Shown in pieces: positions 16,105 through 61,570 of a stretch of DNA of 64,000 nt. The DNA lies in assembly GCF_046119375.1 (NCBI RefSeq), contig NW_027362764.1:394878001-394942000 (forward strand), written 5' to 3'. Source of the stretch: Phyllobates terribilis (taxonomy: Eukaryota). The notes beneath the pieces were generated by a model. That model worked only from the letters and a program-made list of their open reading frames with translations. It had not been told where the DNA came from and did no database searches. The translations under genes were made by a program, and so were the position numbers. Every line of letters begins with the position of its first letter. Position 1 is the first letter of the stretch.

Positions 16105-16371
16105 TAATTTGAATGAATACACTTTAAATCCATTTACAAGGATCTATTGGAGGGCAAGTCTCATGCCAGCAGCCGCGGTAATTCCAGCTCCAGTAGCGTC
16201 CACTAAAGCTGCTGCAGTTAAAAAGCTTTTATAAGGATCGAGCTCGGCTGTCCACCGCAAGGCATCCTACTGCCAGTCCCAGCCCCTATGCCTTGGGGTG
16301 CCTCCTGATGCTCTTCACTAAGTATCCCATGGTCCCGAATCATTTCCTTTGAAAAAATTAAGTGTCTAAAC
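16105..16371 (+). pseudogene. Degenerate 18S rRNA fragment (helix 18 / 530-loop region into V4)
   Basis: ATTGGAGGGCAAGTCTCATGCCAGCAGCCGCGGTAATTCCAGCTCC...GCTGCAGTTAAAAAGCT...CTTTGAAAAAATT is collinear with vertebrate 18S as I recall it; no flanking rDNA. Confidence 0.9.
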
Positions 16372-16484
16372 TACAGGTGGTGTAGCTTGCTTAACAGCCG
16401 GGATAATCCGCTGACTAGCAGACACTGCTACTAGGCACAAAGTATTTCCTGGGCTAGATGCAGTTAAAAATTTGTAATTAGATA

Positions 16485-23000: not shown

Positions 23001-23778
23001 CCTCCTCTGCTGACCTCATCTCTTGGCTGACTGTGGGTTGACAGTAAGTGGGATCTCCAACCTCATCATCATCACCCTGTGTGTTATCACACCCGTCGTC
23101 CTCAGAGCCAACCTGTTCCTGCCCTGACAAAAAACTAAAGTTGTCGCTCCAATCAGGTATTTGAGTCTTATCATCGTCTTCCTCATTGTCTCCACCAACA
23201 GGAGTTACAGTTTGGGAATGAGGGTCTACATTATGGTCAGAACCTTCTGCTTCTGGTCCTGGATCCGACTCATAAAGATTCTGGGCATCAGTGCAGATCA
23301 TTTCCTCGTCTGGATTCACAGAAGCGCTGGAGTCGACCTCTGATTCCCAGGCTATAGTATGAGTAAACAGCTCTGCAGACTCAACCATCTGTTCTACCTC
23401 ATACTCAGACGGGCAGCTGGAGATTTGGGAGCTGTGAGGAAGCAAGTGCGATTTGGGTGACACCTTTGAGGACTGGAGTATTTGTGATGTTGAAGTTGAT
23501 GTGGAGGAGAGCCCACTTAAAGGAGCACTTGATATCCGTTGAAGCACCTGCTGTTTTTGTGCCTCATCTGGAATTTGTAGCGATTGGCGTGGCCGTAAGA
23601 AAGGGATCTTATCACATTGTCCGCTAAAAGAAGTAGACATTTTAGTTTGGCTGGAAGATGGTCTTTCTTCTGCAGATGTTACTGTTGCTTTAACACCTAC
23701 CCCACGGACACAACCTTTTTTCCCCTTCCCAACACGCCTATTCCCCTTTCCACCAGCAGCAGGCCTTTTTCCACTCAT
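20077..23778 (-). CDS. Intact hAT (Ac/ZBED-like) transposase, 1233 aa
   Basis: Basic N-terminus, BED finger (AWAFF...CNIC...MNRHMDMKH), TTDTWTS, VCDHAAN, CMAH, TRWNS, LDPRYK, and C-terminal dimerisation domain with SERVFS. Confidence 0.95.
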   Translation of the reverse strand: MSGKRPAAGGKGNRRVGKGKKGCVRGVGVKATVTSAEERPSSSQTKMSTSFSGQCDKIPFLRPRQSLQIPDEAQKQQVLQRISSAPLSGLSSTSTSTSQILQSSKVSPKSHLLPHSSQISSCPSEYEVEQMVESAELFTHTIAWESEVDSSASVNPDEEMICTDAQNLYESDPGPEAEGSDHNVDPHSQTVTPVGGDNEEDDDKTQIPDWSDNFSFLSGQEQVGSEDDGCDNTQGDDDEVGDPTYCQPTVSQEMRSAEEVEKDASDDEVRLRLPGQRRSTGSTSTTASSNTTLPLTTSRGGSSGRMGAKPCIAWAFFQIDKDDPTRVICNICQQKLSRGQKIHSLSTSCMNRHMDMKHKLQWEAQCATMRPSRPGQPPSAISCASAASSSSVTGGTAVTPALGRRPATSLPATASVIGRSSFSLEVGTPAGVERCPTSIAPPLDQGNLTCPPASSSQTGSLPGTPLSTPSKHNSQPSVPQMWTSKRPFPPSHEKAKRLNFTICKLLATEMLPFRLVDTEDFRDLMSVAVPQYQMPSRHYFSKKGVPALHQHVAHNITASLRNSVCDRVHFTTDTWTSRHGQGRYMSLTGHWVTMVTAGQGAAVQVLPSPRVVRQSSLCQSSSTASASSTSSRSSTCTQSLSGHATSFLTAQKGSCTPPYYVGSRAQRHQAVFTLKCLGNVSHTAEELWSALENQFHEWLSPLDLKPGKAVCDHAANLGAALRRGNVTHVPCMAHVLNLVVQQFLAHYPRLDGLLQRARSLCAHFRHSHPAAQRLTSLQKSLGLPLHRLKCDVPTRWNSTLHMLQRLWQHRQALVQYVLTYNLGQRDSEVGQITLEEWSQIRDLCTLLHSFEMATKMFSADDAIISMTIPVIYMLEHMLNRIRSQVVAQEEVEEVEEEELYAEGLTSARSRRSAAPRRQACEGGGDGFTRAHGSSQTSEEGAGAQEEVEDELMEDSSDEGDLDHISVVRGWGERTEEGSMIVTSPPTQQGLGAPGCATHMSAFLLHYLQHDPRIVRIRNNPDYWVATLLDPRYKSKFAEIIPAIERDARMQEYQQRLLQNLTCAFPQNTSGARSESHSSNLPTVGPSSVQHSNRNRTTVSAGNINFAESFHHFFSPSFARPQETRSLTHSQRLETMVQEYLQVNIEATTVSLDPCSFWASNLDKWPELATYALEILSCPAASVLSERVFSAAGGVLTDKRTRLSTDNVDRLTFIKMNKSWIRNDFSTPVSSWGE

Positions 23779-23889
23779 TTTGGTGGTTAACTAATTCACA
23801 ACTCTGGAGTTGTTTGCACAAAAAAACAATGGATGGTAACCGAGCAGAGCTGAGTGGCCAAACTGTGGTATTAGGCCAAAACTATTGGC

Positions 23890-25930
23890 TGGGTTAGATG
23901 CAGAAAAAAATTATATTCAATTTGCAACCTGATGGAGGTCAGTATAGATGGACTAATACAACAAGTCCCACACACAGCTAGAAGCCCAATATTTTTTCAG
24001 AGGTAGATGCAGAAAAAAATATATTCAGTTTGCAACCTGATGGAGGTCAGTATAGGTGGACTAATAGAACAAGTCCCACACACTGCTAGAAGGCCAAATA
24101 TTTTTTCAGAGCTACATGCAGAAAAAAATTAAATTCAGTTTGCAACCTGATGGAGGTCAGTATAGATGGATTAATAGAACAAGACCCACACACAGCTAGA
24201 AGCCCAATATTTTTTCAGAGGTAGATGCAGAAAAAAATATATTCAGTTTGCAACCTGATGGAGGTCAGTATAGATGGACTAATACAACAAGTCCCACACA
24301 CAGCTAGAAGCCCAAATATTTTTTCAGAGGTACTGTAGATGCAGATAAAAATTATTTTTAATTTGCAACCTGATGGAGGTCAGTATAGATGGACTAATAG
24401 AGAAAGTCCGACACACTACTAGAAGGCCAAATATTTTTTCAGAGCTAGATGCAGAAAAAAATTATATTCAGTTTGCAACCTGATGGAGGTCAGTATAGAT
24501 GGACTAATACAACAAGTCCCACACACAGCTAGAAGCCCAATATTTTTTCAGACGTAGATGCAGAAAAAAATATATTCAGTTTGCAACCTGATGGAGGTCA
24601 GTATAGGTGGACTAATAGAACAAGTCCCACACACTGCTAGAAGGCCAAATATTTTTTCAGAGCTACATGCAGAAAAAAATTATATTCAGTTTGCAACCTG
24701 ATGGAGGTCAGTATAGATGGATTAATAGAACAAGACCCACACACAGCTAGAAGCCCAATATTTTTCCAGAGGTAGATGCAGAAAAAAATTATATTCAGTT
24801 TGCAACCTGATGGAGGTCAGTATAGATGGATTAATAGAACAAGACCCACACACAGCTAGAAGCCCAATATTTTTTCAGAGCTAGATGCAGAAAAAAATTA
24901 TATTCAGTTTGCAACCTGATGGAGGTCAGTATAGATGGATTAATAGAACAAGACCCACACACAGCTAGAAGCCCAATATTTTTTCAGAGGTAGATGCAGA
25001 AAAAAATATATTCAGTTTGCAACCTGATGGAGGTCAGTATAGATGGACCAATACAACAAGTCCCACACACAGCTAGAAGCCCAATATTTTTTCAGAGGTA
25101 GATGCAGAAAAAAATATATTCAGTTTGCAACCTGATGGAGGTCAGTATAGATGGACTAATACAACAAGTCCCACACACAGCTAGAAGCCCAATATTTTTT
25201 CAGAGGTAGATGCAGAAAAAAATATATTCAGTTTGCAACCTGATGGAGGTCAGTATAGATGGACTAATACAACAAGTCCCACACACAGCTAGAAGCCCAA
25301 ATATTTTTTCAGAGGTACTGTAGATGCAGATAAAAATTATTTTTAATTTGCAACCTGATGGAGGTCAGTATAGATGGACTAATAGAGAAAGTCCGACACA
25401 CTACTAGAAGGCCAAATATTTTTTCAGAGCTAGATGCAGAAAAAAATTATATTCAGTTTGCAACCTGATGGAGGTCAGTATAGATGGATTAATAGAACAA
25501 GACCCACACACAGCTAGAAGCCCAATATTTTTTCAGAGGTAGATGCAGAAAAAAATATATTCAGTTTGCAACCTGATGGAGGTCAGTATAGATGGACTAA
25601 TACAACAAGTCCCACACACAGCTAGAAGCCCAATATTTTTTCAGAGGTAGATGCAGAAAAAAATATATTCAGTTTGCAACCTGATGGAGGTCAGTATAGA
25701 TGGATTAATAGAACAAGACCCACACACAGCTAGAAGCCCAATATTTTTTCAGAGCTAGATGCAGAAAAAAATTATATTCAGTTTGCAACCTGATGGAGAT
25801 CAGTATAGATGGATTAATAGAACAAGACCCACACACAGCTAGAAGCCCAATATTTTTTCAGAGCTAGATGCAGAAAAAAATTAGATTCAGTTTGCAACCT
25901 GATGGAGGTCAGTATAGATGGACTAATAGA
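23890..25930. repeat. Tandem array, ~108-110 bp x ~19, between the B1 5' end and its ATG
   Basis: 19 occurrences of GCAACCTGATGGAG counted. Confidence 0.92.
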
Positions 25931-26856
25931 ATGATGCTATGCCCAAAATATTTTACTTCACTAGGTGCAGTAAAAAAATTGGTATTCTATACACAGGTGG
26001 TATATCTTGCAACACAGATAGGCTACTCCACTGACTAACAGACTCTGCAATAGGCCAAAAAGGATTAGCTTTGCTAGATTCAGCCAAATGCTGTGAAAAA
26101 AAACTTGCACAGCACTGGCACAGACCTGCCTGGCAAAAACTGATAGGAACTGATGTAACCTAGTCCTGAAAAGGACTCCAATTACAATTAGTCTTTACTC
26201 CCACAACCTATCTATTTAAGAGCACAGACCTGCCTGATAAAAGTCGTAGGAAATGCTGTAACCTAGTCCTTAAAAGGACTGCAATCACAACTATTCCCTA
26301 CTCCCAAGCTATCTGTATATTTGTGCGAAAATTGGCTTGAAATTAACAAGGTATAGCGCACACAGCAACAGCGGTGCCGTCTAACACGCAGCTGCAGCAG
26401 TGAGAAAATGGTGGCGACGGGGAAAATGGCTTGGTCTTATAGGGCAAGGACATGTGACATACACTGCCAATGACACATGCCCTTGCTTGTGTGAAAAAAA
26501 GCACTTCGCTCCGTGTGTGCGCTGCTGATAGGCTGACAGATTGCACCTCCCCACTGTAAATGCGGGAAAGAGAAAAAAAAATGGAGATCTTCATTGTTCC
26601 TGCAGAGATCCATCCCCTGCCCCTCCCCCCACCCCGCTGTACACTCAAACTGCGTATTAACATTAATTTTCATCATTACTGAGAAAAAATCCAGTTATGA
26701 TTTTCGTGCACGAACAGTTATCGAACATAACCTCGAACAGCCGAATTTTTCTCAAATTGTTCGTGTTCGCCGAACGGCTCGAACACCGCCCAAAACAGCT
26801 CGAATTTGAGATTGGCGAACAGTTCGAGTAGAACAACGCTCATCTCTATTCACCAC

Positions 26857-28021: not shown

Positions 28022-31000
28022 CCACCTGAACTGTAATCCCTGAGCTCCAACACCGCCAGTTGGCGCTCGGAAGTGCCGGCTGCACAGTCAAAACTTGCTG
28101 CTGTGTTATTGGGGTTCAGTAACGTCAGCTGTTCCCCTGCTGTGCGGACAGCAATTTCTCCTGCTCTGTCCACCTTCTCACTACTACAGATTTTAAAGTT
28201 GCTCCAATTACACCTCTGGCTCCTCTGTTTTCAGAATTATCCCTGAGCTCCAACACCGCCAGTTGGCGCTCGGAAGTGCCGTCTGCACAGTCAACACTTG
28301 CTGCCGTGTTATTGGGGTTCAGTAACGTCAGCTGTTCCCCTGCTGTGCGGACGGCAATTTTTCCTGCTCTGTCCACCTTCTCACTACTACAGATTTTAAA
28401 GTTGCTCCAATTACACCTCTGGCTCCTCTGTTTTCAGTATTATCCCTGAGCTCCAACACCGCCAGTTGGCGCTCGGAAGTGCCGTCTGCACAGTCAACGC
28501 TTGCTCCAGTGTTATTGGGGTTCAGTAACGTCAGCTGATCCCCAGCTGTGTGTCCGGCAAATTCTCCTGCTTTGTCCACATCCACTGTACTACTGATTTA
28601 AAACCTCCTCCAAATACACCTCTGGCTCCTCTGTTTTTAGAATTTACCCTGGGCTCCAATACCGCTAGTTGCTGCTCAGAAGTGCCGTCTGCACAGTCAA
28701 TGCTTGGTCCAGTGTTATTGGGGTTCAGTAACGTCAGCTGATCCCCAGCTGTGTGTCCGGCAATTTCTCCTGCTCTGTCCACATTCACACTACTACAGAT
28801 TTTAAAGTTGCTCCAATTACACCTCTGGCTCCTCTGTTTTCAGTATTATCCCTGAGCTCCAACACCGCCAGTTGGCGCTCGGAAGTGCCGTCTGCACAGT
28901 CAACGCTTGCTCCAGTGTTATTGGGGTTCAGTAACGTCAGCTGATCCCCAGCTGTGTGTCCGGCAAATTCTCCTGCTTTGTCCACATCCACTGTACTACT
29001 GATTTAAAACCTCCTCCAAATACACCTCTGGCTCCTCTGTTTTTAGTATTTACCCTGGGCTCCAATACCGCTAGTTGCTGCTCAGAAGTGCCGTCTGCAC
29101 ATTCAACGCTTGCTCCAGTGTTATTGGGGTTCAGTAACGTCAGCTGATCCCCAGCTCTGTGTCCGGCAATTTCTCCTGCTCTGTCCACATTCACACTACT
29201 ACAGATTTTAAAGTTGCTCCAATTACACCTCTGGCTCCTCTGTTTTCAGTATTATCCCTGAGCTCCAACACCGCCAGTTGGCGATCGGAAGTGCCGTCTG
29301 CACAGTCAACACTTGCTGCCGTGTTATTGGGGTTCAGTAACGTCAGATGTTCCCCTGCTGTGCGGACGGCAATTTCTCCTGCTCTGTCCACCTACTCACT
29401 ACTACAGATTTTAAAGTTGCTCCAATTACACCTCTGGCTCCTCTGTATTCAGTATTATCCCTGAGCTCCAACACCGCCAGTTGGCGATCGGAAGTGCCGT
29501 CTGCACAGTCAACGCTTGCTGCCGTGTTATTGGGGTTCAGTAACGTCAGTTGTTCCCCTGCTGTGCGGACGGCAATTTCTCCTGCTCTGTCCACCTTCTC
29601 ACTACTACAGATTTTAAAGTTGCTCCAATTACACCTATGGCTCCTAAGTTTTCAGTATTATCCCTGAGCTTCAACACCGCCAGTTGGCGCTCGGAAGTGC
29701 CGTCTGCACAGTCAACGCTTGCTCCAGTGTTATTGGGGTTCAGTAACGTCAGCTGATCCCCAGCTGTGTGTCCGGCAAATTCTCCTGCTTTGTCCACATC
29801 CACTGTACTACTGATTTAAAACCTCCTCCAAATACACCTTTGGCTCCTCTGTTTTTAGTATTTACCCTGGGCTCCAATACCGCTAGTTGCTGCTCAGAAG
29901 TGCCGTCTGCACAGTCAATGCTTGCTCCAGTGTTATTGGGGTTCAGTAACGTCAGCTGATCCCCAGCTGTGTGTCCAGCAATTTCTCCTGCTCTGTCCAC
30001 ATTCACACTACTACAGATTTTAAAGTTGCTCCAATTACACCTCTGGCTCCTCTGTTTTCAGTATTATCCCTGAGCTCCAACACCGCCAGTTGGCGCTCGG
30101 AAGTGCCGTCTGCACAGTCAACACTTGCTGCTGTGTTATTGGGGTTCAGTAACGTCAGCTGTTCCTCTGCTGTGCGGACGGCAATTTCTCCTGCTCTGTC
30201 CACCTTCTCACTACTACAGATTTTAAAGTTGCTCCAATTACATCTCTGGCTCCTAAGTTTTCAGTATTATCCCTGAGCTCCAACACCGCCAGTTGGCGCT
30301 CGGAAGTGCCGTCTGCTCAGTCAAAGCTTGCTCCAGTGTTATTGGGGTTCAGTAACGTAAGCTGATCCCCAGCTGTGTGTCCGGCAAATTCTCCTGCTTT
30401 GTCCACATCCACTGTACTACTGATTTAAAACCTCCTCCAAATACACCTCTGGCTCCTCTGTTTTTAGTATTTACCCTGGGCTCCAATACCGCTAGTTGCT
30501 GCTCAGAAGTGCCGTCTGCACAGTCAATGCTTGCTCCAGTGTTATTGGGGTTCAGTAACGTCAGCTGATCCCCAGCTCTGTGTCCGGCAATTTCTCCTTC
30601 TCTGTCCACATTCACACTACTACAGATTTTAAAGTTGCTCCAATTACACCTCTGGCTCTTCTGTTTTCAGTATTATCCCTGAGCTCCAACACCGCCAGTT
30701 GGCGCTCGGAAGTGCCGTCTGCACAGTCAACACTTGCTGCCGTGTTATTGGGGTTCAGTAACGTCAGCTGTTCCCCTGCTGTGCGGACGGCAATTTCTCC
30801 TGCTCTGTCCACCTTCTCACTACTACAGATTTCAAAGTTGCTCCAATTACACCTCTGGCTCCTCTGTTTTCAGTATTATCCCTGAGCTCCAACACCGCCA
30901 GTTGGCGCTCGGAAGTGCCGTCTGCACAGTCAACGCTTGCTGCCGTGTTATTGGGGTTCAGTAACGTCAGTTGTTCCCCTTCTGTGCGGACGGCAATTTC

Positions 31001-33930
31001 TCCTGCTCTGTTCACCTTCTCACTACTACAGATTTTAAAGTTGCTCCAATTACACCTCTGGTTCCTAAGTTTTCAGTATTATCCCTGAGCTTCAACACCG
31101 CCAGTTGGCGCTCGGAAGTGCCGTCTGCACAGTCAACACTTGCTGCCGTGTTATTGGGGTTCAGTAACGTCAGCTGTTCCCCTGCTGTGCGGAAGGAAAT
31201 TTCTCCTGCTCTGTCCACCTTCTCACTACTACAGATTTTAAAGTTGCTCCAATTACATCTCTGGCTCCTCTGTTTTCAGTATTATCCCTGAGCTCCAACA
31301 CCACCAGTTGGCGCTCGGAAGTGCCGTCTGCACAGTTAACACTTGCTGCTGTGTTATTGGGGTTCAGTAACGTCAGCTGTTCCTCTGCTGTGCGGACAGC
31401 AATTTCTCCTGCTCTGTCCACCTTCTCACTACTACAGATTTTAAAGTTGCTCCAATTACACCTCTGGCTCCTCTGTTTTCAGTATTATCCCTGAGCTCCA
31501 ACACCGCCAGTTGGCGCTCGGAAGTGCCGTCTGCACAGTCAACGCTTGCTCCAGTGTTATTGGGGTTCAGTAACGTCAGCTGATCCCCAGCTGTGTGTCC
31601 GGCAAATTCTCCTACTTTGTCCACATCCACTGTACTACTGATTTAAAACCTCCTCCAAATATACCTCTGGCTCCTCTGTTTTTAGTATTTACCCTGGGCT
31701 CCAATACCGCTAGTTGCTGCTCAGAAGTGCCGTCTGCACAGTCAATGCTTGCTCCAGTGTTATTGGGGTTCAGTAACGTCAGCTGATCCCCAGCTGTGTG
31801 TCCGGCAAATTCTCCTGCTTTGTCCACATCCACTGTACTACTGATTTAAAACCTCCTCCAAATACACCTCTGGCTCCTCTGTTTTTAGTATTTACCCTGG
31901 GCTCCAATACCGCTAGTTGCTGCTCAGAAGTGCCGTCTGCACAGTCAACGCTTGCTCCAGTGTTATTGGGGTTCAGTAACGTCAGCTGATCCCCAGCTGT
32001 GTGTCCAACAATTTCTCCTGCTCTGTCCACATTCACACTACTACAGATTTTAAAGCTGCTCCAATTACACCTCTGGCTCCTCTGTTTTCAGTATTATCCC
32101 TAAGCTCCAACACCGCCTGTTGGCGCTCGGAAGTGCCATCTGCACAGTCAACGCTTGCTCCAGTGTTATTGGGGCTCAGTAACGTCAGCTGATCCCCAGC
32201 TGTGTGTCCGGCAAATTCTCCTGCTTTATCCACATCCACTGTACTACTGATTTAAAACCTCCTCCAAATAAACCTCTGGCTCCTCTGTTTTTAGTATTTA
32301 CCCTGGGCTCCAATACCACTAGTTGCTGCTCAGAAGTGCCGTCTGCACAGTCAACGCTTGCTCCAGTGTTATTGGGGTTCAGTAACGTCAGCTGATCCCC
32401 AGCTCTGTGTCCGGCAAATTCTCCTGCTTTATCCACATCCACTGTACTACTGATTTAAAACCTCCTCCAAATACACCTCTGGCTCCTCTGTTTTTAGTAT
32501 TTACCCTGGGCTCCAATACCGCTAATTGCTGCTCAGAAGTGCCGTCTGCACAGTCAACGCTTGCTCCAGTGTTATTGGGGTTCAGTAACGTCAGCTGATC
32601 CCCAGCTGTGTGTCCAGCAATTTCTCCTGCTCTGTTCACATTCACACTACTACAGATTTTAAAGTTGCTCCAATTACACCTCTAGCTCCTCTGTTTTCAG
32701 TATTATCCCTGAGCTCCAACACCGCCAGTTGGCACTCGGAAGTGCCGTCTGCACAGTCAACACTTGCTGCCGTGTTATTGGGGTTCAGTAACGTCAGCTG
32801 TTCCCCTGCTGTGCGGACGGCAATTTCTCCTGCTCTGTCCACCTTCTCACTACTACAGATTTTAAAGTTGCTCCAATTACACCTCTGGCTCCTCTGTTTT
32901 CAGTATTATCCCTGAGCTCCAACACCGCCAGTTGGCGCTCGGAAGTGCCGTCTGCACAGTCAACACTTGCTGCCGTGTTATTGGGGTTCAGTAACGTCAG
33001 CTGATCCCCAGCTGTGTGTCCGGCAAATTCTCCTGCTTTGTCCACATCCACTGTACTACTGATTTAAAACCTCCTCCAAATACACCTCTGGCTCCTCTGT
33101 TTTTAGTATTTACCCTGGGCTCCAATACCGCTAGTTGCTGCTCAGAAGTGCCGTCTGCACAGTCAATGCTTGCTCCCGTGTTATTGGGGTTCAGTTACGT
33201 CAGCTGATCCCCAGTTGTGTGTCCGGCAATTTCTCCTGCTCTGTCCTCATTCACACTACTACAGATTTTAAAGTTGCTCCAATTACACCTCTGGCTCCTC
33301 TGTTTTCAGTATTATCCCTGAGCTCCAACACCGCTAGTAGGCACTCGAAAGTGCCGTCTGCACAGTCAACGTTTGCTCCAGTGTTATTGGGGTTCAGTAA
33401 CGTCAGCTGATCCCCAGCTGTGTGTCCGGCAAATTCTCCTGCTTTGTCCACATCCACTGTACTACAGATTTAAAACCTCCTCCAAATACACCTCTGGCTC
33501 CTCTGTTTTTAGTATTTACCCTGGGCTCCAATACCGCTAGTTGCTGCTCAGAAGTGCCGTCTGCACAGTCAACGTTTGCTCCAGTGTTATTGGGGTTCAG
33601 TAACGTCAGCTGATCCCCAGCTGTGTGTCCGGCAAATTCTCCTGCTTTGTCCACATCCACTGTACTACTGATTTAAAACCTCCTCCAAATACACCTCTGG
33701 CTCCTCTGTTTTTAGTATTTACCCTGGGCTCCAATACCGCTAGTTGCTGCTCAGAAGTGCCGTCTGCACAGTCAACGCTTGCTCCAGTGTTATTGGGGTT
33801 CAGTACCGTCAGCTGATCCCCAGCTGTGTGTCCGGCAAGTTCTCCTGCTCTGTCCACATTCACACTACTATAGATTTTAAAGTTGCTACAATTACGCCTC
33901 TGGCTCCACTCTGTTTTTAGTATTTACCCT
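28022..33930. repeat. 203-bp tandem array, ~29 units, two interspersed variant types
   Basis: The same unit position recurs at 28184 and 33868 (exactly 28 x 203); ORF-track hits repeat every 203 bp. Confidence 0.95.
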
Positions 33931-36715
33931 GGGTTCCAGCACCGCCAGCTGGTTCCCAGCAGTGTCTTTGGCACGGGTACTCCCTCCTGCCCAGCCTGGT
34001 TCCAGCACGCCAGCTGTTTCCGGGTAGTGTCAACGTCACTTTGCCTCCAATGCGTTGTCCTGTCGTGTTGCGGTCGGTTTAGCCGACTCTATGGTGCCTG
34101 CAGTTTAGGTGACTCCTATGTGGGCTGCGGGATCTGGCAATGAAGGCTGGTTCCATAGTGCCAACAGGACAAGCCCCTGTAGGACTGTGGGTTTTGGTAA
34201 CTGCGGCCGGCTTGCGGCCTTGAAACTTTTTTTTACATGGGTACCTTCTGCTACCCATATGGGTTCCAGTACCGTCAGCTGGTTCTCAGCAGTGCCTTTG
34301 GATTAGGTGCCTCCTTCTCGGTATCCAAGTTCCACCAACGTCTGCTGGTCCTTGGTAGTGCTTTCTGGCACAGGTACCTCCTGCTTAGTAACGAGTTCCA
34401 GTACTGTCAGCAGGTCCTCGGTAGTTCCATTGGCTCTTGTACCTTCTGCTACCCATCCGGGTTCCAGTACCGTCAGCTGGTTCTCGGCAGTTCCTTTGGA
34501 TTAGGTGCCTCCTTCTCAGGTATCCAAGTTCCACCAACGTCTGCTGGTCCTTGGTAGAACTTTCTGGCACAGGTACCTCCTGCTTAGTAACCTAGTTCCA
34601 GTACCGTCAGCTGGTCCTCGGTAGTTCCATTGGCTCTTGTACCTTCTGCTACCCATCCGGGTTCCAGTACCGTCAGCTGGTTCTCGGCAGTGCCTTTGGA
34701 TTAGGTGCCTCCTTCTCGGTATCCAAGTTCCACCAATGTCTGCTGGTCCTTGGTTGTGCTTTCTGGCACAGGTACCTCCTGCTTAGTAACCGAGTTCCAG
34801 TACCGTCAGCTGGTCCTCGGTAGTTCCATTGGCTCTTGTACCTTCTGCTACCCATCCAGTTCCAGTACCGTCAGCTGGTTCTCGGCAGTGCCTTTGGATT
34901 AGGTGCCTCCTGCTCGGTATCCAAGTTCCACCAACGTCTGCTGGTCCTTGGTAGTGCTTTCTGACACAGGTACCTCCTGCTTAGTAACCGAGTTCCAGTA
35001 CCGTCAGCTGGTCCTCGGTAGTTCCATTGGCTCTTGTACCTTCTGCTACCCATTCATGTTTCAGTACCGTCAGCTGGTCCTTGGTAGCTCCATTTGCTCT
35101 TGTACCTTCTACTACCCATCCGGGTTCCAGTACCGTCAGCTGGTTCTCGGCAGTGTCTTTGGCACGGGTACGCCCTCCTGCCCAGCCTGGTTCCAGCACG
35201 CCAGCTGTTTCCGGGTAGTGTCAACGTCACTTTTCCTCCAATGCGTTGTCCAGTCGTGTTGCGGTTGGGTTAGCCGACTCTATGGTGCCTGCAGTTTAGG
35301 TGACTCCTATGTGGGCTGCGGGATCTGGCAATGAAGGCTGGTTCCATAGTGCCAATAGGACTAGCACCCCCTGTAGGACTGTGGGTTTTGGTAACTGCGG
35401 CCGGCTCGCGGCCTTGAAGCTTTTTTTTACATTGGTACCTTCTGCTACCCATCCGGGTTCCAGTACCGTCAGCTGGTTCTCGGCAGTGCCTTTGGATTAG
35501 GTGACTCCTTCTCGGTATCCAAGTTCCACCAACGTCTGCTGGTCCTTGGTAGTGCTTTCTGACACAGGTACCTCCTGCTTAGTAACCGAGTTCCAGTACC
35601 GTCAGCTGGTCCTTGGTAGTTCTATTGGCTCTTGTATCTTCTGCTACCCATCCGGGTTCCAGTGCCGTCAGCTGGTCCTCGGTAGTTCCATTTGCTCTTG
35701 TACCTTCTACTACCCATCCGGGTTCCAGTACCGTCAGCTGGTTCTCGGCAGTGTCTTTTGCACGGGTACTCCCTCCTGCCCGCCTGGTTCCAGCACGCCA
35801 GCTGTTTCCGGGTAGTGTCAACATCACTTTGCCTCCAATGCGTTGTCCTGTCGTGTTGCGGTCGGGTTAGCCGACTCTATGGTGCCTGCAGTTTAGGTGA
35901 CTCATATATGGGCTGCGGTATCTGGCAATGAAGGCTGGTTCCATAGTGCCAATAGGACAAGCACCCCCTGTAGGACTGTGGGTTTTGGTAACTGCGGCCG
36001 GCTCGCGGCCTTGAAACTTTTTTTTACATCGGTACCTTCTGCTACCCATCCGGGTTCCAGTACCGTCAGCTGGTTCTCGGCAGTGCCTTTGGATCAGGTG
36101 CCTCCTTCTCGGTATCCAAGTTCCACCAACGTCTGCTGGTCCTTGGTAGTGCTTACTGGCACAGGTACCTCCTGCTTAGTAACCGAGTTCCAGTACCGTC
36201 AGCTGGTCCTCGGTAGTTCCTTTGGCTCTTGTACCTTCTGCTACCCATCCGGGTTCCAGTACCGTCAGCTGGTTCTCGGCAGTGCCTTTGGATTATGTGC
36301 CTCCTTCTCGGTCTCCAAGTTCCACCAACGTCTGCTGGTCCTTGGTAGTGCTTTCTGACACAGGTACCTCCTGCTTAGTAACCGAGTTCCAGTACCGTCA
36401 GCTGGTCCTCTGTAGTTTCATTGGCTCTTGTACCTTCTGCTACCCATCTGGGTTCCAGTACCGTCAGCTGGTTCTCAGCAGTGCCTTTGGATTAGGTGCC
36501 TCCTTCTCGGTATCCAAGTTCCACCAACGTCTGCTGGTCCTTGGTAGTGCTTTCTGGCACAGGTACCTCCTGCTTAGTAACCGAGTTCCAGTACCATCAG
36601 CTGGTCCTCGGTAGTTCCATTGGCTCTTGTACCTTCTGCTACCCATCCGGGTTCCAGTACCGTCAGCTGGTCCTCGGTAGTTCCTCAGCCTTCTTGTACC
36701 TTCTGCTACATTTCC
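33930..36715. repeat. Composite array of ~198-199 bp units plus a ~300-bp block x3
   Basis: GTACCTTCTGCTACCCATCCGGGTTCCAGTACCGTCAGCTGG units; longer block at ~33930, ~35150 and ~35745. Confidence 0.9.
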
Positions 36716-36754
36716 AAGTTCAAGCTTTTTGAAATGGTTCTTGTTAATCACTCT

Positions 36755-39147: not shown

Positions 39148-42100
39148 GATTCATTTTTAGTGTTGAATAAATGTAGAAGTGCACAAATATGCTATATGGC
39201 CAATATACTAACATATACATACATGCTGCGATAAATACATGAACTCCCCTATTGCTGTAAATGTTAAAAGCATAAGGTACTTAGCGTTTTTTTTTATCAA
39301 AGAGCATAATTAGACAACAAAATCTAGTGAAATTAACTAGGTAAGTTAATGAGAATACAGAAAATCACAAACAAAATGTCACTAAAATTGCTAGGATTGT
39401 ATCAAGAACCCTAATTTTTTTATTATTTCCAGTGTTGAGACTATGTAATTGCTGAACAAAAACATACAAGTGTGTGGCAGTAATTTTCACTATTGTGTAT
39501 CCTTGTATACATTAGAGAGCATGACGATGGAGAAAACTGGGGAATGGCTCAAATTTTCAATCTTGACCTATGAACTATCCCACTGATGTTAAGATAGGTT
39601 TAATAGCCATTTCTCTAATTGGATTTCAAATGGACTGAATACATTTCCTACAAGAATAACTAATAATTAACATAATTCTAGTAACTAATCCAGGGAATCA
39701 ATTCCACTGTCATCTCTAGGGTCAGAAGGGATTTTCTTCTCCTGAGAGGTTAACTTGGCAGCTGCTTCGCTGGGAATTTTGTTTACCATTCCCTAAGAGG
39801 TTTGAATCTAAGGTTCATGCAAATGCTGCTGCCTAATGAGTTTTGGATCCAATTTATGAAATCTACAGCTAGGAAGTGGAAGTGTTTATAGCAACCAATG
39901 AAATTATGGTGTTATATCCAAGTGCAGTGTCAGCATTAGTGTTTATGTGGGACGCATCCAGTTTTATTTTTACTTTGTTACACTAGTCACATTCACAATT
40001 GACTGCCCATAAAAAATAGTAATGTGTGTAAGATAAATTAATCTCCATGTGTAAGTCTCAAATTTGAGAAATATAAAAAGTTAGGAAAAGTAAAAAAATG
40101 AATTGTAAGTAGGGATGAGCGGACCCGTGGATGTTTGGGTTTGTTGGGTTTGGCCAAACTAGAGTTAAAAGTTTGGTTCGCTATACGAACTTGACCCCAA
40201 ACCCAATAGAAATCAATGGCGACCAGAACTTTGGTGCTTTAAAATGGCAGTAAAATGGTCATAGTAAGGGCTAAGGGGCTGCAAAAGGAAGCTAAATGGG
40301 GTGTAAGCAGTACAAGTGCCCTGTACATAAGTTTGGATAGGTAAATGACTTAAAATAACATAGAATCCCTCAAAAAAAGGACAAATTTTGTGACAAATCT
40401 AAAAAGTTTGTGAAGTGGATTAGATTAAAAAAAAATTGAAGATGAGACCCTGCATCACAATGGCCGCATGCACATGGATGCTACAGTGAAATTGCGAATG
40501 GTCATTAATTCAGTCAATTTGGATTACATTTTTTACATTTTTGGCTACAGATCATTGTAAAATTATGAACTGGTAAAGTAATGCATGGAAAGCCTGACAG
40601 AGGCGCCGCATAGGCCCTCATGCTCTTGCCCCTCTCCCAAGCGACCCTGTGCAATGCCTTGGTGCATTGGTTGATGAGGCAGAGAATTTGTGGTGTCCTC
40701 TGGAGGCCATTCACCTTATTGGAGGAGTAATCCAACGCTGGCTGTTATTTTTATATTTTTTTTCTTTTTTTTTAATGTTTTTTTTAATTTTTTTTTGTTT
40801 TGTTTTTAATAAAATACAACACTTTTGTTTTTTGTTTTATTTTTCTTTATTTTTTTTATTTTTTTTTTTAAGGAACTGACTTTAAACAACCTAAAGATAA
40901 CAAAACTAAAACGAGCAATCTAAAACCAGGAGGCATAGACCCCAGTGGAAGAAGAGGTGGATGTGGCAGTATAGGTGGAAGAGGCAAAGAAGGAGCAATC
41001 CAACACTGTTTTTGGAGGGGATTTTGTATTTTTTTTGTGTATGCTTTTTAGGGAACTTACTTAAAAGAACCTAGAATGAACCTAAAAGAATCTAGAATGA
41101 ACCCAAAATAAACTAACAAGATACAACCAGGAGGCAGAGGTCCAACTGGAGGAGGAAGTGGAGGAGGTGGACTTGGAAGTTTAGGTGGAAGAGGTAGAGG
41201 AGTAGGTAGTCAACACAGCTTTTTGGGTTTTCTTTTCTGGAGGAAGCACCCAAATGAAAAGAATGGCAAATAGAGTTAAAGGCTGGCTGTGTGCGGCTGG
41301 TATAGTTGTTTAGTCATCTAAAGGTATGGACAAGTCCTGTGGGATCCACACCTGGTTAATTTTAAGAAATGTTATACAGTATACTTGCGGCAGGGAAGGC
41401 CAGCACCTCCAAGGCATAAATGGCAAGCTCAGGCCATGTGTCCAATTTAGACACCCAGAAGTTAAATGGGACAGACCCATCAGTTAGTATGTGGATACGA
41501 GTGGACAGGTACTTTTCCACCATGTTGTTGTAACGCTCCTCCTGCTAAGACGGACAGTATCAGATTGTGGTGCCGGATGTTGTTGCGTGCTCATAAAGTT
41601 TTGCCACATTTTGGCCATGCTAACCCTGCCTTCCAAGGAGGTGGCAGTGCCCTAGTTGCATTGTCAACTTCCTCCTCCACCCTTGCCTTGCTCATCCACT
41701 GAGCCCCTGCTGTCAGGTGGGAAAGCCATCAGTTGTTTCTCTACCAGCGTGTGCTTGTATTCATGCATTTTGCGATCCCACTCCAGTGATGGAAGTAATG
41801 ATGGCATGTTGTCCTTGTAGTGGGGATCCAGCTGTGTGGCCACCCAGAAATCTGCACTGGAAACAATACGTGCAACTCGGAGCTCATTGCGCAGGCATAG
41901 CAGCATGTATTGTCTCATTTGTGCCAGGCTGCCCAGATGCAACGGCAAGCTATCCTCGGTGGCAGATGTATCATATGGGCACTCTGTATCCCCCCAGCCA
42001 TGTTCCAGTTATGCCTTTGACCTGCTCTAAATACCATCCTGCTGTGAACACGGTTGTTCCTCCTCCCTGTCCTCCTCCTCGTCCTCCCAAACTGTCCCCT

Positions 42101-42640
42101 GGCTGTACAGTTGGGTACTTGGCCACTGCAGTGACAGTAACCCACCCTCTGAGCCATGTGGGGATGACAGGCCTGATAATAGTGTGAATTGGCCCTGCTC
42201 TTCCTGCTGCTCTTCCTCTTTTGCCACCACCTCATCCATCATCACCTGAAGTGTTTCTTCCAGCAGGCTTATAAGTGGTATAGTAACGCTGATGATGGCA
42301 TCATCAACGCTGGCCATATTGGTGGAGTATTCAAAGGAGAGCAACATGGTACACACGTCCTGCATGGAGGCCCAATCATTGGTGGTGAAGTGATGTTGTT
42401 CTGCAGAGTGACTCAGCCGTGTGTGCTGCAGCTGAAACACCACTATTGCCTGCTGCTGCTCGCACAGTCTCTTTAGCATATGCAAGGTGGAGTTCTACCT
42501 TGTTGGTATGCAAATTGCCTCCTCAGTGGCCTTGACCTCTATAGCACCACCTGTTGGCAGAAGCAATCCTACAAGTCACTATCGACCATTTACCGAGTCT
42601 TGCAATTTGACTTAGGATGAAAGCCAAATCAGAATCTCAA

Positions 42641-42685
42641 TTTGCAGACATGGTGTTTCAGGCTATTGGCCCTCATCAGTGCAAA
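42641..42685 (-). ncRNA. Minimal type I hammerhead ribozyme motif (near-intact)
   Basis: UUUGCA-CUGAUGA-GGGC CAAUA GCCU-GAAA-CA CCA UG-UC^UGCAAA: full core, 6-bp stem I, 4-bp stem II, short stem III, GUC site. Confidence 0.82.
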
Positions 42686-42977
42686 GTATGAGAACTAATT
42701 TGGCTAGGTGAGAGGCTCTGGACTGAGGTCTAAGGGGCAATGTTTCTCCTAATGGAGAGTTACATACCGGCTCTGGCATGCCAAGGTAAGGAGGCTTATT
42801 TGCCGTGCAATACTCCTGTGGGAAATTTAATATGCAAATTGCTTCTTCAGAGAGGAAGAAGACTTGAATTATATAGTATAGCATCACCTGTTGGAAGCAG
42901 CAATCCTACAAGTCACTATCGACCCTTTACCGACTCTTGCAATAGGACTTATGATAAATGGCAAATCAGAATCTCAA

Positions 42978-43022
42978 TTTGCAGACACAATGTTTCGGGA
43001 TATTGGCCCTCGGCAATGCTAA
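42978..43022 (-). ncRNA. Second hammerhead motif with mutated core (probably inactive)
   Basis: UUAGCA-UUGCCGA-GGGC CAAUA UCCC-GAAA-CAUUGUG-UC^UGCAAA. Confidence 0.7.
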
Positions 43023-43725
43023 GTCTGAAAACTGATATGGCTACGTGAGAGGCTCTGGACTGTACCTTGTTGGTACATTGGATATGAGGCTGTAAATGGG
43101 AAGGCAGAAGTGATGCTGCAGCGGAGACAGGTTAGCAGAAGCAGGGTGAGAATGCCAAAAGCGAACACACTGCCCGCACTTTCAGCAGCAGCTCTGACAT
43201 GTGTGGGCTTTTCAGGAAGCTCTGCACCACCAAGTTCAGCACATGCGCCAGGCAAGGGATGTGCATCAAACCAGCTAGGCCCAGAGCTGCTGCGAGATTT
43301 TACCCATTATCACACACCACCAGGTTGGGCTTGAGGTTCACTGGCACCAACCACTCATCTGTCTGCTGTTTGATCCCCGTCCACAGCTCCTGCGCATTGT
43401 GAGATTTGTCCCCCAAACAGAGGAGTTTAAGAACAGCCTGCTGTCTTTTCCCCCGGCTGTGCTGAAGTTGGTGGTTCAGGTCTTACTGTGACCAGATGAG
43501 GAGGCAGTGGAGGAAGAGGAGTAGGAGGAGGAGGCAACCTGGACAGAGAAACATCCAGAAATCCTCGGTGGTGGTAGGACATGGGCTAGAACGCCTTCTG
43601 CCTCTTTACCAGCCACCACTACAGTGGGTAATTAAGGAGATGTAACTTCCCTGGTCGTGCTTACTGGTCTACATATTAGTGGTTATGTGGTCCTTGCCAC
43701 TTATGGCATTGCACAGTGCACTGTA

Positions 43726-46325
43726 TCGAAGCAGATGTTCAGTTCGACTGCCCCCTGGGTGTCTGAGCAGCCCTTTTTAGGATCACTCTGCTCACCTCCT
43801 TTGAGGAAGGTGCTAGAAAAGGTGCCTCAAACATAGTTGCTTCACTTTACCCTGGTCAGCCTACCGCAGCTCACAGGTATCCCTCATAACGGTTGAAACA
43901 CAAAGAAGAAAATTATGGTACTCGACCTTGGCACATGGAGTGTAAGAACTCTCCTAGACAATATCAAGGCAGACCAACCAGAGAGAAGAACATCACTGAT
44001 TGCTAAAGAGCTAACTCACTACAATGTGGACATAGCAGCTCTCAGCCAAAATGCGCTTAGCAAGTAAGGGCCAACTGACAGAGGGTAGTGGTGGATACAC
44101 ACTTTTCTGGAGTGGTTGAGACAGCAGTGAACGATGAGAAGCAGGTTTGGGATTTGCTACAAATCTCACCTTGTCCGTTAACTTGCCCAGCTTCTGAAGG
44201 GCATCAACGAATCTGAGGACAATTCAACTCCCACTTTCAAACAAGAAGTGTGCTACGCTGATTAGTGCCTATGCTCCCACCATGACCAATCCAAATGACA
44301 TTAAAGATAAGTTCTATGATGAACTTGACTTTATCTCTGCAATTCCACAGTCAGACAAGCTCATTATACTTGGAGACTTTAATGCCAGAGTGAGAACAGA
44401 TTATCAAAACTGGGAAGGAGTTATAGGGAGTCATAGCATTGGCAAGTGTAACAGTAATGCCCTTCTGCTCCTCAAGATGTGTGCCACACATGACTTTGTC
44501 ATCCCCAACACCCTGTTCCATCTATCTACTCGCAAGAAGACATCGTGGATGCACCCACGCTCGAAGCACTGGCATCTCATTGACTACGTCATCACCAGGA
44601 AAAGGGATAGGATGGACTTTAGAGTATCAAGAGACATGTGTGGTGCTGACTGCTGGACCACCTACCGTCTCAATGTGTCTAAGTTCATGCTTCACATTCT
44701 GCCGTTAAGGAGACCCCAAGGGCAGAAGACTGCAAAGAGGCTGAATTTCTCGAATCTGCAAGGCAGAAGGGTTGCAAGGGAATTTGCCAATGACCTTGAC
44801 AGAAGACTGTCAGACACACCACAGGCAGACGAAACCAGCGTCGATGAATAGTGGATGATTGTTAAAGATGCTATTTGCAATTCTGCCCTGGAACATCTCA
44901 GACCAGCAGCCTGAAGTAATCTAGATTGGTTAGATGAAAATGACAAATAAATAAAGGCACTTCTAGAAGAGAAACATCAGCATTACAAAGCGTATCAAAA
45001 TGACCCCACATCGCTAGCCAAGAAGGATGCCTTCATCAACACAAAAAGGAAAGTACGGATAAAGTTAAGTGAGATGCAGGACAACTGGTTCAGCAAGAAG
45101 GATAATGAAATTCAGGGCCATGTAGACAGCCACGACCTGAAGCGCTTCTATGATGTGTTATGGGCTGTATATGGACCCCAATCATCCATCTCCTTAGTTC
45201 TACTTAATGTGGACGTAACTAAGCTGCTGACAGAAAAGAAACAAATTCTGGAATGGTGGGCTGAGCACTTTAACAGCATCCTTAATCACCCTGCCATTAT
45301 CAACAACGAGGCCATTGCCTGCCTAGCCCATGTAGAAATCAACAAAGACCTCGATGTTCTTCCCACTGAAAATGAAGTCAGGAAGACAGTAAAACAACTC
45401 TCCTGTGGCAAAGCACCATAAAGCGATGCTATTACTGTAGAGGTATACAAAGCAGGAGGCCCTGTCTTGATGCAAATGATGACTAAACTATTCCAGTCTT
45501 GGGGAAAAAGGAAAAGGTTCCACAACAGCTGAAAGATTCCAGCATAATCCATATATACAAGAGAAAAGGCAACTGCCAATCTTGCAACAAACATCAAGGC
45601 ATCTCTCTTTTGTGCACTGCTGGGAAGATCCTGGCTCACCTTTTGCTCAACCACCTCCTTCAGCACCTTGAGCAAGGTCTATTGCTCAAAAGACAATGCT
45701 GCTTCCATGCTGAAAGTGGGACAGCATATATGGTCTTCGCGTCGTGTCAAGTCCAGGAAAAGCACCAGGAGCAATGCATGGACCTTTTTGTGACCTTTGT
45801 TGACTTGACCAAGGCTTTTGACACAGTGAGACGGCCTGTTGGAAAATCATGGGAGAGTTTGGCTGCCTGAAAAAGTTCATTACAATCATCCGGAAGCTCC
45901 ATGATGGTATGATGGTGAAGGTCCTGAATGAGGAATCGGAGGCCTTCCCAGTTACATATGGCATAAAACAAGGCTGCGTACTCGCCCCGACCCTGTTCAG
46001 TATGATATTTTCTGCCATTTTGACAGACAGCCTTTAGCAACTATGAAGACAGAATCCATGTCAGGTACAGGACTATCTACAAGATATTCAACCCCAGGAC
46101 AGTCATTCGTAACTTTTTGTTTGCTGATGACTGTGCACTCAATGCCAGCACAGAGCAGCAAATGCTGCGTGAAATGGACTGTTTTTCACAAGCTTACGAC
46201 AACTTTGGTATTGTTATCCATACTAGAAAGACCAAAGTTATGTACCACCAGGAAAACAATACCACGAGACACACTTACATTAAGGTGAAGAAACACAGCC
46301 TCAAAGCAATCAACAATTTCAGCTA
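43726..46325 (+). mobile_element. RTE-clade LINE, degenerate, 3'-truncated
   Basis: LGTWSVRTLLD...PERRT, LIILGDFNARV, SWMHPRSKHWHLIDYVI, TFVDLTKAFDTV, GIKQGCVLAPTLF and FADDCAL motifs, with many stops and frameshifts. Confidence 0.9.
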
Positions 46326-46649
46326 CTGCTACTTGCATCTCCCATACTTTTATTCTCACTTGCCATGTTTTTTTTTCTTTTACATTACACCATACATTGA
46401 CACTTTTTCTCTTAGCACACATTTCTTACTACTGTAAAATTATGTTTTTGTATCCAAAACGCCAGCACATTGTCTTATAAAATCGCATTGGCCTTTCTAT
46501 CTTCTTATCACCACATATAGATAAAATGCATTATTACCATCTTTTCATACTCAGTAAGGAAAAATTGCCTCTAAGCTAAATACAGTAGAGGCCTTTTTAC
46601 CTTACCGACTCTGACAAGATGTTTATTCATTTCCGATTATATATGATGT

Positions 46650-59409: not shown

Positions 59410-61570
59410 TCTATTAGTCAATCTATACTGACCTCCATCAGGTTGCAAATTGAATATAATTTTTTTCTGCATCTAGCTCTGAAAAAATATTTGGGCTTCT
59501 AGCAGTGTGTGGGACTTGTTCTATTAGTCCATCTATACTGACCTCCATCAGGTTGCAAACTGAATATAATTTTTTTCTGCATCTAGCTCTGAAAAAATAT
59601 TTGGCCTTCTAGCAGTGTGTGGGACTTGTTCTATTAGTCCATCTATACTGACCTCCATCACGCTGCAAATTCAAAATAATTTTTTGTCTGCATCTAGCTC
59701 TGAAAAAATATTTGGCCTTCTAGCAGTGTGTGGGACTTTCTCTATTAGTCCATCTATACTGACCTTCATCAGGTTGCAAATTAAAAATAATTTTTATCTG
59801 CATCTACCTCTGAAAAAATATTTGGGCTTCTAGCTGTGTGTGGGACTTGTTCTATTAGTCCATCTATACTGACCTCCATCAGGTTGCAAACTGAATATAA
59901 TTTTTTTCTGTATCTAGCTCTGAAAAAATATTTGGCCTTCTAGCAGTGTGTGGGACTTTCTCTATTAGTCCATCTATACTGACCTCCATCAGGTTGCAAA
60001 TTAAAAATAATTTTTATCTGCATCTAGCTCTGAAAAAATATTTGGCCTTCTAGCAGTGTGTGGGACTTTCTCTATTGGTCCATCTATACTGACCTCCATC
60101 AGGTTGCAAATTAAAAATAATTTTTTGTCTGCATCTAGCTCTGAAAAAATATTTGGCCTTCTAGCAGTGTGTGGGACTTTCTCTATTAGTCCATCTATAC
60201 TGACCTCCATCAGGCTGCAAATTAAAAATAATTTTTATCTGCATCTACCTCTGAAAAAATATTTGGCCTTCTAGCTGTGTGTGGGACTTGTTCTATTAGT
60301 CGATCTATACTGACCTCCATCAGGTTGCAAACTGAATATAATTTTTTTCAGCATCTAGCTCTGAAAAAATATTTGGTCTTCTAGCAGTGTGTGGGACTTT
60401 CTCTATTAGTCCATCTATACTGACCTCCATCAGGTTGCAAATTAAAAATAATTTATATCTGCATCTAGCTCTGAAAAAATATTTGGCCTTCTAACAGTGT
60501 GTGGGACTTTCTCTATTAGTCCATCTATACTGACCTCCATCAGGTTGCAAATTAAAAATAATTTTTTGTCTGCATCTAGCTCTGAAAAAATATTTGGCCT
60601 TCTAGCAGTGTGTGGGACTTTCTCTATTAGTCCATCTATACTGACCTCCATCAGGTTGCAAACTGAATATATTTTTTTTCTGTATCTACCTCTGAAAAAA
60701 TATTGGGCTTCTAGCTGTGTGTGGGACTTGTTCTATTAGTCCATCTATACTGACCTCCATCAGGTTGCAAACTGAATATAATTTTTTTCTGCATCTAGCT
60801 CTGAAAAAATATTTGGCCTTCTAGCAGTGTGTGGGACTTTCTCTATTAGTCCATCTATACTGACCTCCATCAGATTGCAAATTAAAAATAATTTATATCT
60901 GCATCTAGCTCTGAAAAAATATTTGGCCTTCTAGCAGTGTGTGGGACTTTCTCTATTAGTCCATCTATACTGACCTCCATCAGGTTGCAAATTAAAAATA
61001 ATTTTTATCTGCATCTAGCTCTGAAAAAATATTTGGCCTTCTAGCTGTGTGTGGGACTTGTTCTATTAGTCCATCTATACTGACCTCCATCAGGTTGCAA
61101 ACTGAATATAATTTTTTTCTGCATCTAGCTCTGAAAAAATATTTGGCCTTCTAGCAGTGTGTGGGACTTTCTCTATTAGTCCATCTATACTGACCTCCAT
61201 CAGGTTGCAAATTAAAAATAATTTTTTGTCTGCATCTAGCTCTGAAAAAATATTTGGCCTTCTAGCAGTGTGTGGGACTTTCTCTATTAGTCCATCTATA
61301 CTGACCTCCATCAGGTTGCAAACTGAATATATTTTTTTTCTGCATCTACCTCTGAAAAATTATTTGGGCTTCTAGCTGTGTGTAGGACTTGTTCTATTAG
61401 TCCATCTATACTGACCTCCATCAGGTTGCAAACTGAATACAATTTTTTTCTGCATCTACCTCTGAAAAAATATTTGGGCTTCTAGCTGTGTGAGGGACTT
61501 GTTCTTTTAGTCCATCTATACTGACCTCCATCAGGTTGCAAATTGAATATAATTTTTTTCTGCATCTAAC
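59410..61570. repeat. ~109-bp tandem array x ~20 in B2
   Basis: Reverse complement of the B1 array unit; ~20 CTCCATCAGGTTGCAAA-type cores counted. Confidence 0.92.

Follow-up and report, generated by a model that had tools for sequence, protein, structure and literature searches.

A short non-coding insertion interrupts a hAT transposase gene on the minus strand of the window, that is, the whole stretch of 64,000 nucleotides (64 kb) that was analysed. It is bounded by a target-site duplication (TSD) and consists of two head-to-tail units, organized as follows:

41313 to 42495, minus strand: 3' part of the broken hAT transposase gene that hosts the insertion
42496 to 42508, no strand: left copy of the TSD, 13 bp
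42509 to 43062, minus strand: inserted element, non-coding, with neither poly(A) nor simple-repeat tail
42509 to 42830, minus strand: downstream unit of full length, lacking 13 bases near its 3' end
42647 to 42983, minus strand: cut-to-cut monomer of 337 nt, G+C content 43%, containing the intact ribozyme core
42831 to 43062, minus strand: upstream unit of 232 nt, truncated at its 5' end, which lies 79 nt ahead of its own GUC site
43063 to 43075, no strand: right copy of the TSD, identical to the left one
43076 to 43719, minus strand: 5'-side part of the broken hAT transposase gene

The element proper (42509-43062) was 554 bp in length, equivalent to 1.64 units of 337 bp. In the sequence self-comparison, 42540-42725 and 42877-43062 aligned at an offset of 337 with 161 of 186 positions identical (87%), and the unit-to-unit alignment reached 42507/42831, with 13 bases absent from the terminal unit. 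The TSD was exact at 13 of 13 positions (42496-42508 and 43063-43075). All three sense frames after the core were closed by stops common to both copies, which also ruled out an anole-like frame starting inside the ribozyme, and the two longest reading frames of the insert had no Pfam match. The original prediction of a non-coding 1.6-mer with a 13-bp TSD was thus borne out in each of its parts. The last two bases of the left TSD copy (TA) also matched the continuation of the unit, giving a 2-nt microhomology at the sense 3' end. The 13-bp target (42496-42508) has self-complementary 4-base ends and overlaps codons of the hAT catalytic-region motif, probably by chance.

The two units differed at 25 of the 186 aligned sites, comprising 10 transitions and two clear CpG changes. 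This composition suggests more transversions than plain decay from identical copies would leave and, given the low share of transitions (10/25), the units may already have differed before insertion. The probability of an identical 13-bp TSD beside a unit divergence of 13% was approximately 0.15, and it is therefore compatible with decay after insertion.

When the insert and one TSD copy were removed, the reading frame was restored through the hAT D..TRW motif, and a full-length frog hAT protein of 848 aa aligned on either side of the insert, in agreement with the predicted insertion into a hAT transposase gene. The site was present once, with the W intact, in two hAT paralogs of the window. 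In the host gene a stop replaces the W codon, and both TSD copies contain the changed base; therefore, the hAT gene was likely dead before the insertion. Five of the eight relatives of the hAT piece were named, all of them frogs (dendrobatoids and Engystomops; best identity 72%), from which we infer a frog host. In addition, 11 of the 15 joints listed (of 447) linked the left hAT flank straight to the right one, without the insert, and these empty sites confirm the insertion event. The host copy seems to carry a second insertion, a broken LINE at about 43720-46440 (+), presumably of RTE type by its motifs, with endonuclease and reverse transcriptase (RT) fragments below Pfam cut-offs; it starts where hAT homology ends (43719). 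Elsewhere in the window, 20077-23790 (minus strand) holds an uninterrupted frame of 1,237 aa that combines a BED zinc finger, a hAT dimerisation domain and an undamaged D..TRW motif. Several paralogs in the window are broken, but this one is a candidate for an intact, autonomous hAT transposase.

Neither the insert nor the long frames of the 64-kb window contained an RT/GIY-YIG frame. The RT frames of the window were considered as Penelope-like and rejected, being what we take to be LINE-like types. One of them, an RT fragment (RVT_1, E 2.4e-14) that we presume to be L1-like from its motifs, lies beside a transposase fragment presumably of Tc1-like type (17500-18171 and 18706-19311, plus strand). 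An isolated 18S rRNA fragment (Rfam RF01960, 77 bits) was located between transposon remnants at 16046-16410 (+). Tandem arrays and a degenerate telomere-like hexamer tract were found at 23895-25931, 28036-33952, 34241-36721, 59410-61568 and 7992-8149 (periods 108, 203, 66/199 and 110), and strict and relaxed descriptor scans revealed no hammerhead in them. The unit itself contains a CTCF-like 16-mer (42542-42557, minus strand, and about 42879-42894) with two mismatches to what we take to be the consensus, to which the loose ends of the family look closer than the window unit. This 16-mer was not used as evidence, with three matches in the window against 0.9 expected and as many in 5 of 100 shuffles.

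Hammerhead motifs of the two units

Both units carry a hammerhead on the minus strand, complete in the downstream unit and mutated in the upstream one:

42641 to 42685, minus strand: complete type I hammerhead of canonical form with C3 at 42679 and a G10.1-U11.1 pair; cut predicted between 42647 and 42646
42612 to 42705, minus strand: extended helix I around the hammerhead, 4-5 bp plus 11 bp beyond an internal loop
42978 to 43022, minus strand: second hammerhead with C3>U and A6>C, GUC site kept (between 42984 and 42983)

In the downstream unit, a helix I of 6 bp is followed by CUGAUGA, a helix II formed by a G-U and three Watson-Crick pairs with the loop CAAUA, GAAA, a helix III of 3 bp including A15.1-U16.1, and C17 at 42647, so that the cut position coincides with the one predicted earlier. 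This motif was the sole match in the window to the strict descriptor (0 in 300 shuffled windows) and to the relaxed one alike. The Rfam search that had been proposed was favourable in part: Hammerhead_HH9 aligned over its full model to 42625-42697 (minus strand) with 26.1 bits and an E-value of 7.2e-5, a score that did not reach the gathering score of 52 and came from a narrow scan of 141 bases only, while wider Rfam scans, over 2.7 kb with E-values up to 10 and over the entire window at gathering scores, detected none. The UAC bulge, the following U and the A-rich loop 2 aligned to the HH9 model.

The motif had been described as a complete minimal type I hammerhead. It is complete and of type I, but its geometry is not minimal. 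According to the definitions in PMC4209133, minimal hammerheads have a long helix II, an extra base before 10.1 and no helix III; the downstream motif, with a helix I of 6 bp, a helix II of 4 bp, no extra base before 10.1 and a helix III, is by its sequence canonical and not of the Penelope minimal type. The G10.1-U11.1 pair fits the CpG decay suggested for it, as U11.1 (42660) is a C in the other copy, in CpG context. At the offset of 337 nt, as anticipated, that other copy has the core changes C3>U and A6>C, and it still has G10.1-C11.1. In this regard, the axolotl hammerhead HHR_Amex2 has a U-U at the base of helix II and still cleaves (PMC7229834); therefore, a non-canonical pair at this place need not be fatal.

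Stem I, for which an extension by CUCA/UGAG had been proposed, does extend, and a further 11-bp helix was found beyond it. The 108-nt segment with this extended helix I had a z-score of -3.17, none of 200 shuffles being equally stable, while the equivalent segment of the upstream copy (z -0.62) was not unusually stable. The predicted monomer fold with the intact ribozyme lay 2.6 kcal/mol above the minimum. Between the two copies, 8 of 9 Watson-Crick pairs could form in helix III, against 6 of 9 for either copy with itself. A rescue by dimerization, in which the intact core would cut the upstream GUC, was judged unlikely at this locus, as forcing the dimer fold had a predicted cost of 14.7 kcal/mol relative to the minimum, compared with the 2.6 kcal/mol of the monomer fold. 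The locus copy is accordingly predicted by these folds to cut once at most and so would not release a monomer. The monomer circle of this decayed copy was unremarkable (z -0.56, 57 of 200 shuffles equally stable), in contrast to the "highly self-paired" retrozyme circles of PMC7229834, although helix I closed across the circle junction in its lowest-energy fold.

The family in public sequencing runs and its preferred 3' end

Among the 24 public sequencing runs listed, 20 contained part of the insert, under five organism labels, and contigs were aligned from four of the 24 (X2, X6, X15 and X17; three organism labels, A, B and E). The family is very abundant, with 15,488, 12,216, 373 and 885 contigs aligned to it in X2, X6, X15 and X17, respectively, and a summed depth per unit 38-45 times that of the multi-copy hAT flank, a ratio that does not represent a copy number. 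This ratio was 38-39 in two runs guessed to be RNA and 41-45 in the DNA runs, values that are neutral on expression, the contigs giving no strand, ends or level. None of the listed runs containing the insert is recorded as RNA. The middle of the unit (42726-42830) was as abundant in the family contigs as the remainder and hence belongs to the unit. Pattern scans of viral contigs (0 and 7 matches) and metagenomes (0 and 1) found no family member; the eight loci were chance matches, with no similarity beyond 15-24 bases.

All three junctions of the 337-bp cycle were recovered. Behind 42868, loose ends ran on into further unit sequence (148, 136 and 20 contigs); the stretches 42664-42847 and 42599-42794 were spanned by single pieces; and loose ends before 42813 (5 and 7 contigs) continued leftwards as a family variant that matched 21 of 30 window bases, whereas only 2 of 18,276 control stretches scored as high. 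Judged from their start position, the contigs from 42813 would cross the boundary between 42830 and 42831. The recurrence of the head-to-tail junction, including in a variant about 70% alike, favours a truly tandem or circular unit over a one-off truncation. Together with the family contigs and the frog relatives of the hAT gene, this upholds the predicted frog family with a tandem unit of about 337 nt.

These junctions bear on the possibility that the insert is a truncated partial tandem of a coding Penelope-like pseudo-LTR together with its tail, whose 337-bp period would be an accident of truncation. A 3' end fixed past the hammerhead, a 5'-truncated unit before a longer one and a TSD are Penelope traits (PMC8557442; PMC11167929), 24 of 57 retrozyme families of Xenopus match Repbase entries, nearly all of them Penelope-like (bioRxiv 10.64898/2026.07.22.740005), and with 24 of 2,329 loose ends listed, some copies may have a coding body. 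However, random truncation would not be expected to repeat the same junction across runs and in the divergent variant; the hammerhead is canonical, whereas metazoan pseudo-LTRs typically have the minimal form (PMC4209133); and stops close each of the three sense frames after the core in either copy, while the frame of the anole element starts in the ribozyme. We therefore consider this explanation unlikely. The recurring junction likewise makes improbable the outcome named beforehand as a refutation, in which every longer copy would be the end of a coding Penelope element.

The catalytic A6 at 43013 was present in all the aligned depth of X2, X6 and X17, from which it follows that the upstream A6>C is private to the locus copy. 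The stem I bin was the deepest in both DNA runs. At 42593/42930 both units of the locus have a C where 92-99% of the aligned depth has A; therefore, the two units likely derive from one template or one uniform source array. Some variants of the ribozyme region were also seen: in X6, 11 contigs have a C at the free core position 7 and an altered helix II strand (near 42650/42690); in X2, one contig has a perfect 8-base palindrome in helix III joined to the 3' end region of the unit; and in X17, eight contigs diverge after 42650, where another hammerhead family may follow.

The family contigs revealed, in addition, a boundary shared with the locus:

42829 to 42833, minus strand: family-preferred sense 3' end, in the register of the locus end (42507-42509), putative start of reverse transcription

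In X6, 72 contigs had loose ends before 42829 (median 255 letters, agreement 0.38, AT-rich), and in X15 six contigs had them before 42831 (agreement 0.48), so that the preferred end was seen in two of the four runs, among the 24 of 2,329 loose ends listed. They represent many unrelated flanks at one place, in register with the left end of the locus insert. In an undeleted unit this sense 3' end lies 151 nt after the cut; neither end of the insert falls at the predicted cut site, and there is no poly(A). In X2, 112 contigs break behind 42716-42717 (agreement 0.57), nine bases from the register of the locus 5' end; their consensus resembles the continuing unit, and this may be a second preferred boundary.

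The Penelope-like enzyme of the anole nicks AT-rich DNA and reverse-transcribes from internal sites 3' of the hammerhead, with uncleaved RNA as its template (Frangieh et al., 2024; PMC11167929), and Penelope-like elements show 5' truncation and partial tandems (Craig et al.; PMC8557442). The locus has a fixed internal 3' end past the hammerhead, a 5' truncation, a partial tandem and an AT-rich junction, and a fixed end with unrelated AT-rich flanks is as would be expected for internal priming of the Penelope type. The mobilisation by a Penelope-like RT put forward in the original prediction is thus backed by the common 3' end, although we still infer it rather than observe it. A hairpin at 42834-42864 (minus strand), just upstream of the preferred 3' end, had a z-score of -2.33 (4 of 200 shuffles), and its counterpart in the terminal unit is damaged by the deletion. 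The anole element begins reverse transcription within a stem-loop (PMC11167929).

Two other routes of insertion were weighed against these ends. The insert might be a tandem SINE-like hammerhead repeat whose mobilising enzyme came from a LINE (L1- or RTE-type) instead of a Penelope-like element. Target-primed insertion by LINEs is also compatible with a 13-bp duplication, AT-rich junctions and 5' truncation, and LINE RT fragments are present in the window. However, the insert has no poly(A) or simple-repeat tail, it is unlike the LINE fragments of the window (best other match E 0.37), and its 3' end inside a tandem unit requires internal priming, which makes a LINE enzyme very unlikely in our judgement. 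Alternatively, the family could be satellite DNA spread at the DNA level, through excised circles or repair capture, the hammerhead being an inert relic. Its very high abundance and tandem structure would suit such a satellite, and no RNA product has been seen, but an exact 13-bp TSD and a family-fixed end are unexpected from DNA capture, and the family has kept the ribozyme core and helix I (A6 at 43013; greatest depth in the stem I bin). Spread as DNA is consequently given hardly any credence here.

Relationship to amphibian retrozymes and proposed mobilisation

The anatomy of the insert, its 13-bp TSD, the empty site, the abundance of the family, the head-to-tail junctions and the common 3' end were all directly seen. 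In attention to them, we consider it likely that the locus holds a decayed, dispersed copy of an abundant 337-bp tandem family with a canonical hammerhead, probably a frog non-LTR retrozyme, reverse-transcribed into a dead hAT gene, likely by a Penelope-like enzyme. What counts against this reading is that no coding Penelope partner was seen in the window and that the common 3' end appeared in two of the four runs, together with the Rfam score below gathering, the unremarkable stability of the circle, the many transversions and the fact that only one of nine Xenopus retrozyme dimers was cleaved in vitro (bioRxiv 10.64898/2026.07.22.740005).

Several marks of retrozymes, as given in PMC7229834, are present: a type I hammerhead in the unit, a head-to-tail unit within 150-450 bp in many copies, with a high summed depth in all four aligned runs, no coding frame, a G+C content of 43% and a TSD longer than 4 bp. 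The closest description is that of the axolotl, in which tandem type I hammerhead repeats of 330-350 bp yield linear and circular RNAs (PMC7229834). With Rtz_331 and Rtz_353 of this species (Cervera and de la Pena, 2020; PMC7229834) the frog family shares a tandem unit of 330-350 bp that codes for no protein, a type I hammerhead of canonical geometry whose helix III is weak, a G+C content below 50%, a TSD longer than 4 bp and a very high abundance. Unlike them, the frog locus is a dispersed 1.64-mer with one dead core, and expression, cleavage and circles, demonstrated for the axolotl retrozymes, are putative in the frog family.

Non-LTR retrozymes have been reported in 7 of 7 amphibians sampled, with a mean of 316 bp, and retrozyme families of Xenopus have been tied to Penelope pseudo-LTRs (Li, Clavereau and Pollet, 2026; bioRxiv 10.64898/2026.07.22.740005). 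The family resembles the Xenopus elements in its frog host, a unit near the 316-bp mean, dispersed monomers and dimers and the proposed Penelope mobilisation. An active non-LTR retrozyme is defined in the same preprint (bioRxiv 10.64898/2026.07.22.740005) by two consecutive complete hammerheads; at the locus, the upstream core has C3>U and A6>C and falls outside this definition. The main text of the preprint (10.64898/2026.07.22.740005) contains no analysis of insertion ends or TSDs for non-LTR retrozymes, the term TSD appearing once, for plant elements.

Regarding the Penelope-like elements, the insert resembles Poseidon_Ac of the green anole (PMC11167929; PMC4209133) in having a fixed internal 3' end that follows the hammerhead, junctions rich in AT and a partial tandem with 5' truncation; the template in the anole is uncleaved RNA (PMC11167929). 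It differs in having no RT/GIY-YIG frame, in its canonical rather than minimal hammerhead and in the distance from cut to end, which is about 150 nt in the frog insert and about 85-92 nt in Poseidon_Ac, as computed from the text of PMC11167929. Neither an ORF with RT and GIY-YIG nor a minimal hammerhead, by which an autonomous Penelope-like element is recognized, was found at the locus.

According to reviews (PMC7761336), animal retrozymes have no conserved motif that reveals the mobilising retrotransposon, and the 2026 preprint (10.64898/2026.07.22.740005) argues the Penelope link from co-occurrence and trees. Non-LTR retrozymes of some 330 bp in amphibians, as well as their connection to Penelope, are already published (PMC7229834; bioRxiv 10.64898/2026.07.22.740005). 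In the literature searched on amphibian and frog retrozymes, hammerheads and satellites no description of the 337-bp family was found, and the family is probably undescribed, although supplements or Repbase may hold a description.

The origin of the locus would then be the following. Intact tandem arrays elsewhere would be transcribed on the hammerhead strand, and their ribozymes would cleave behind each GUC, at intervals of 337 nt; the weak helix III suggests that dimers would probably do so best. By analogy with the axolotl (PMC7229834), a host ligase would then circularise the monomers. A Penelope-type RT/GIY-YIG protein would nick the target, prime at an internal position about 150 nt downstream of the cut and copy 554 nt by reverse transcription across two uncut ribozyme sites. 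The template may equally have been a circle, passed 1.64 times by the enzyme, or a tandem RNA left uncleaved, and the inserted copy would subsequently have decayed.

The preferred 3' end coincides with a further motif of the unit:

42832 to 42839, plus strand: octamer ATGCAAAT at the preferred end, candidate distal promoter element; second copy at 42508-42515

The octamer is perfect in both units and lies 185 nt before the next cut; its occurrence by chance has a probability of about 2% per unit, and it was spotted after the fact. The internal RNA polymerase II promoter of newt satellite 2 is composed of an octamer and a proximal element. This promoter is of the snRNA type (PMC2220036), and satellite 2 is, like the frog family, an amphibian repeat of about 330 bp (Epstein and Gall, 1987; Coats et al., 1994; via PMC7229834, PMC6155905 and PMC2220036) with an extended hammerhead, an internally looped helix I and a weak helix III. 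The octamer upstream of the ribozyme in the frog unit may be set beside the snRNA-type promoter of satellite 2. It must be noted that satellite 2 is a salamander repeat, whereas the host of the 337-bp family is apparently an anuran, and that the two are likened by description. An insertion longer than the unit keeps the promoter upstream, a logic that has been applied to Penelope tandems and to Schistosoma repeats (PMC6765202); if the octamer is a promoter element, only longer-than-unit insertions would keep it upstream of a ribozyme. It is conceivable, although we hold it doubtful, that newt satellite 2 has its frog counterpart in the 337-bp family, which would be a circular-RNA element carrying its own promoter, with the octamer placed at the start of Penelope-like reverse transcription. 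If this were true, an insertion of a single unit would separate promoter and body, and only those running through the ribozyme more than once could still be transcribed. The fixed end and the 13-bp TSD would then be a genomic footprint naming the mobilising enzyme of animal retrozymes.

The locus itself is minor, being an old copy lodged in a defunct transposon. Its fixed end and its octamer deserve further attention: the internal 3' end fixed in the family, the measured TSD and the longer-than-unit copy from one source define a specific RNA and a start site that are testable with a purified Penelope enzyme. The family, in turn, extends the amphibian retrozymes to what is likely a non-Xenopus frog lineage.
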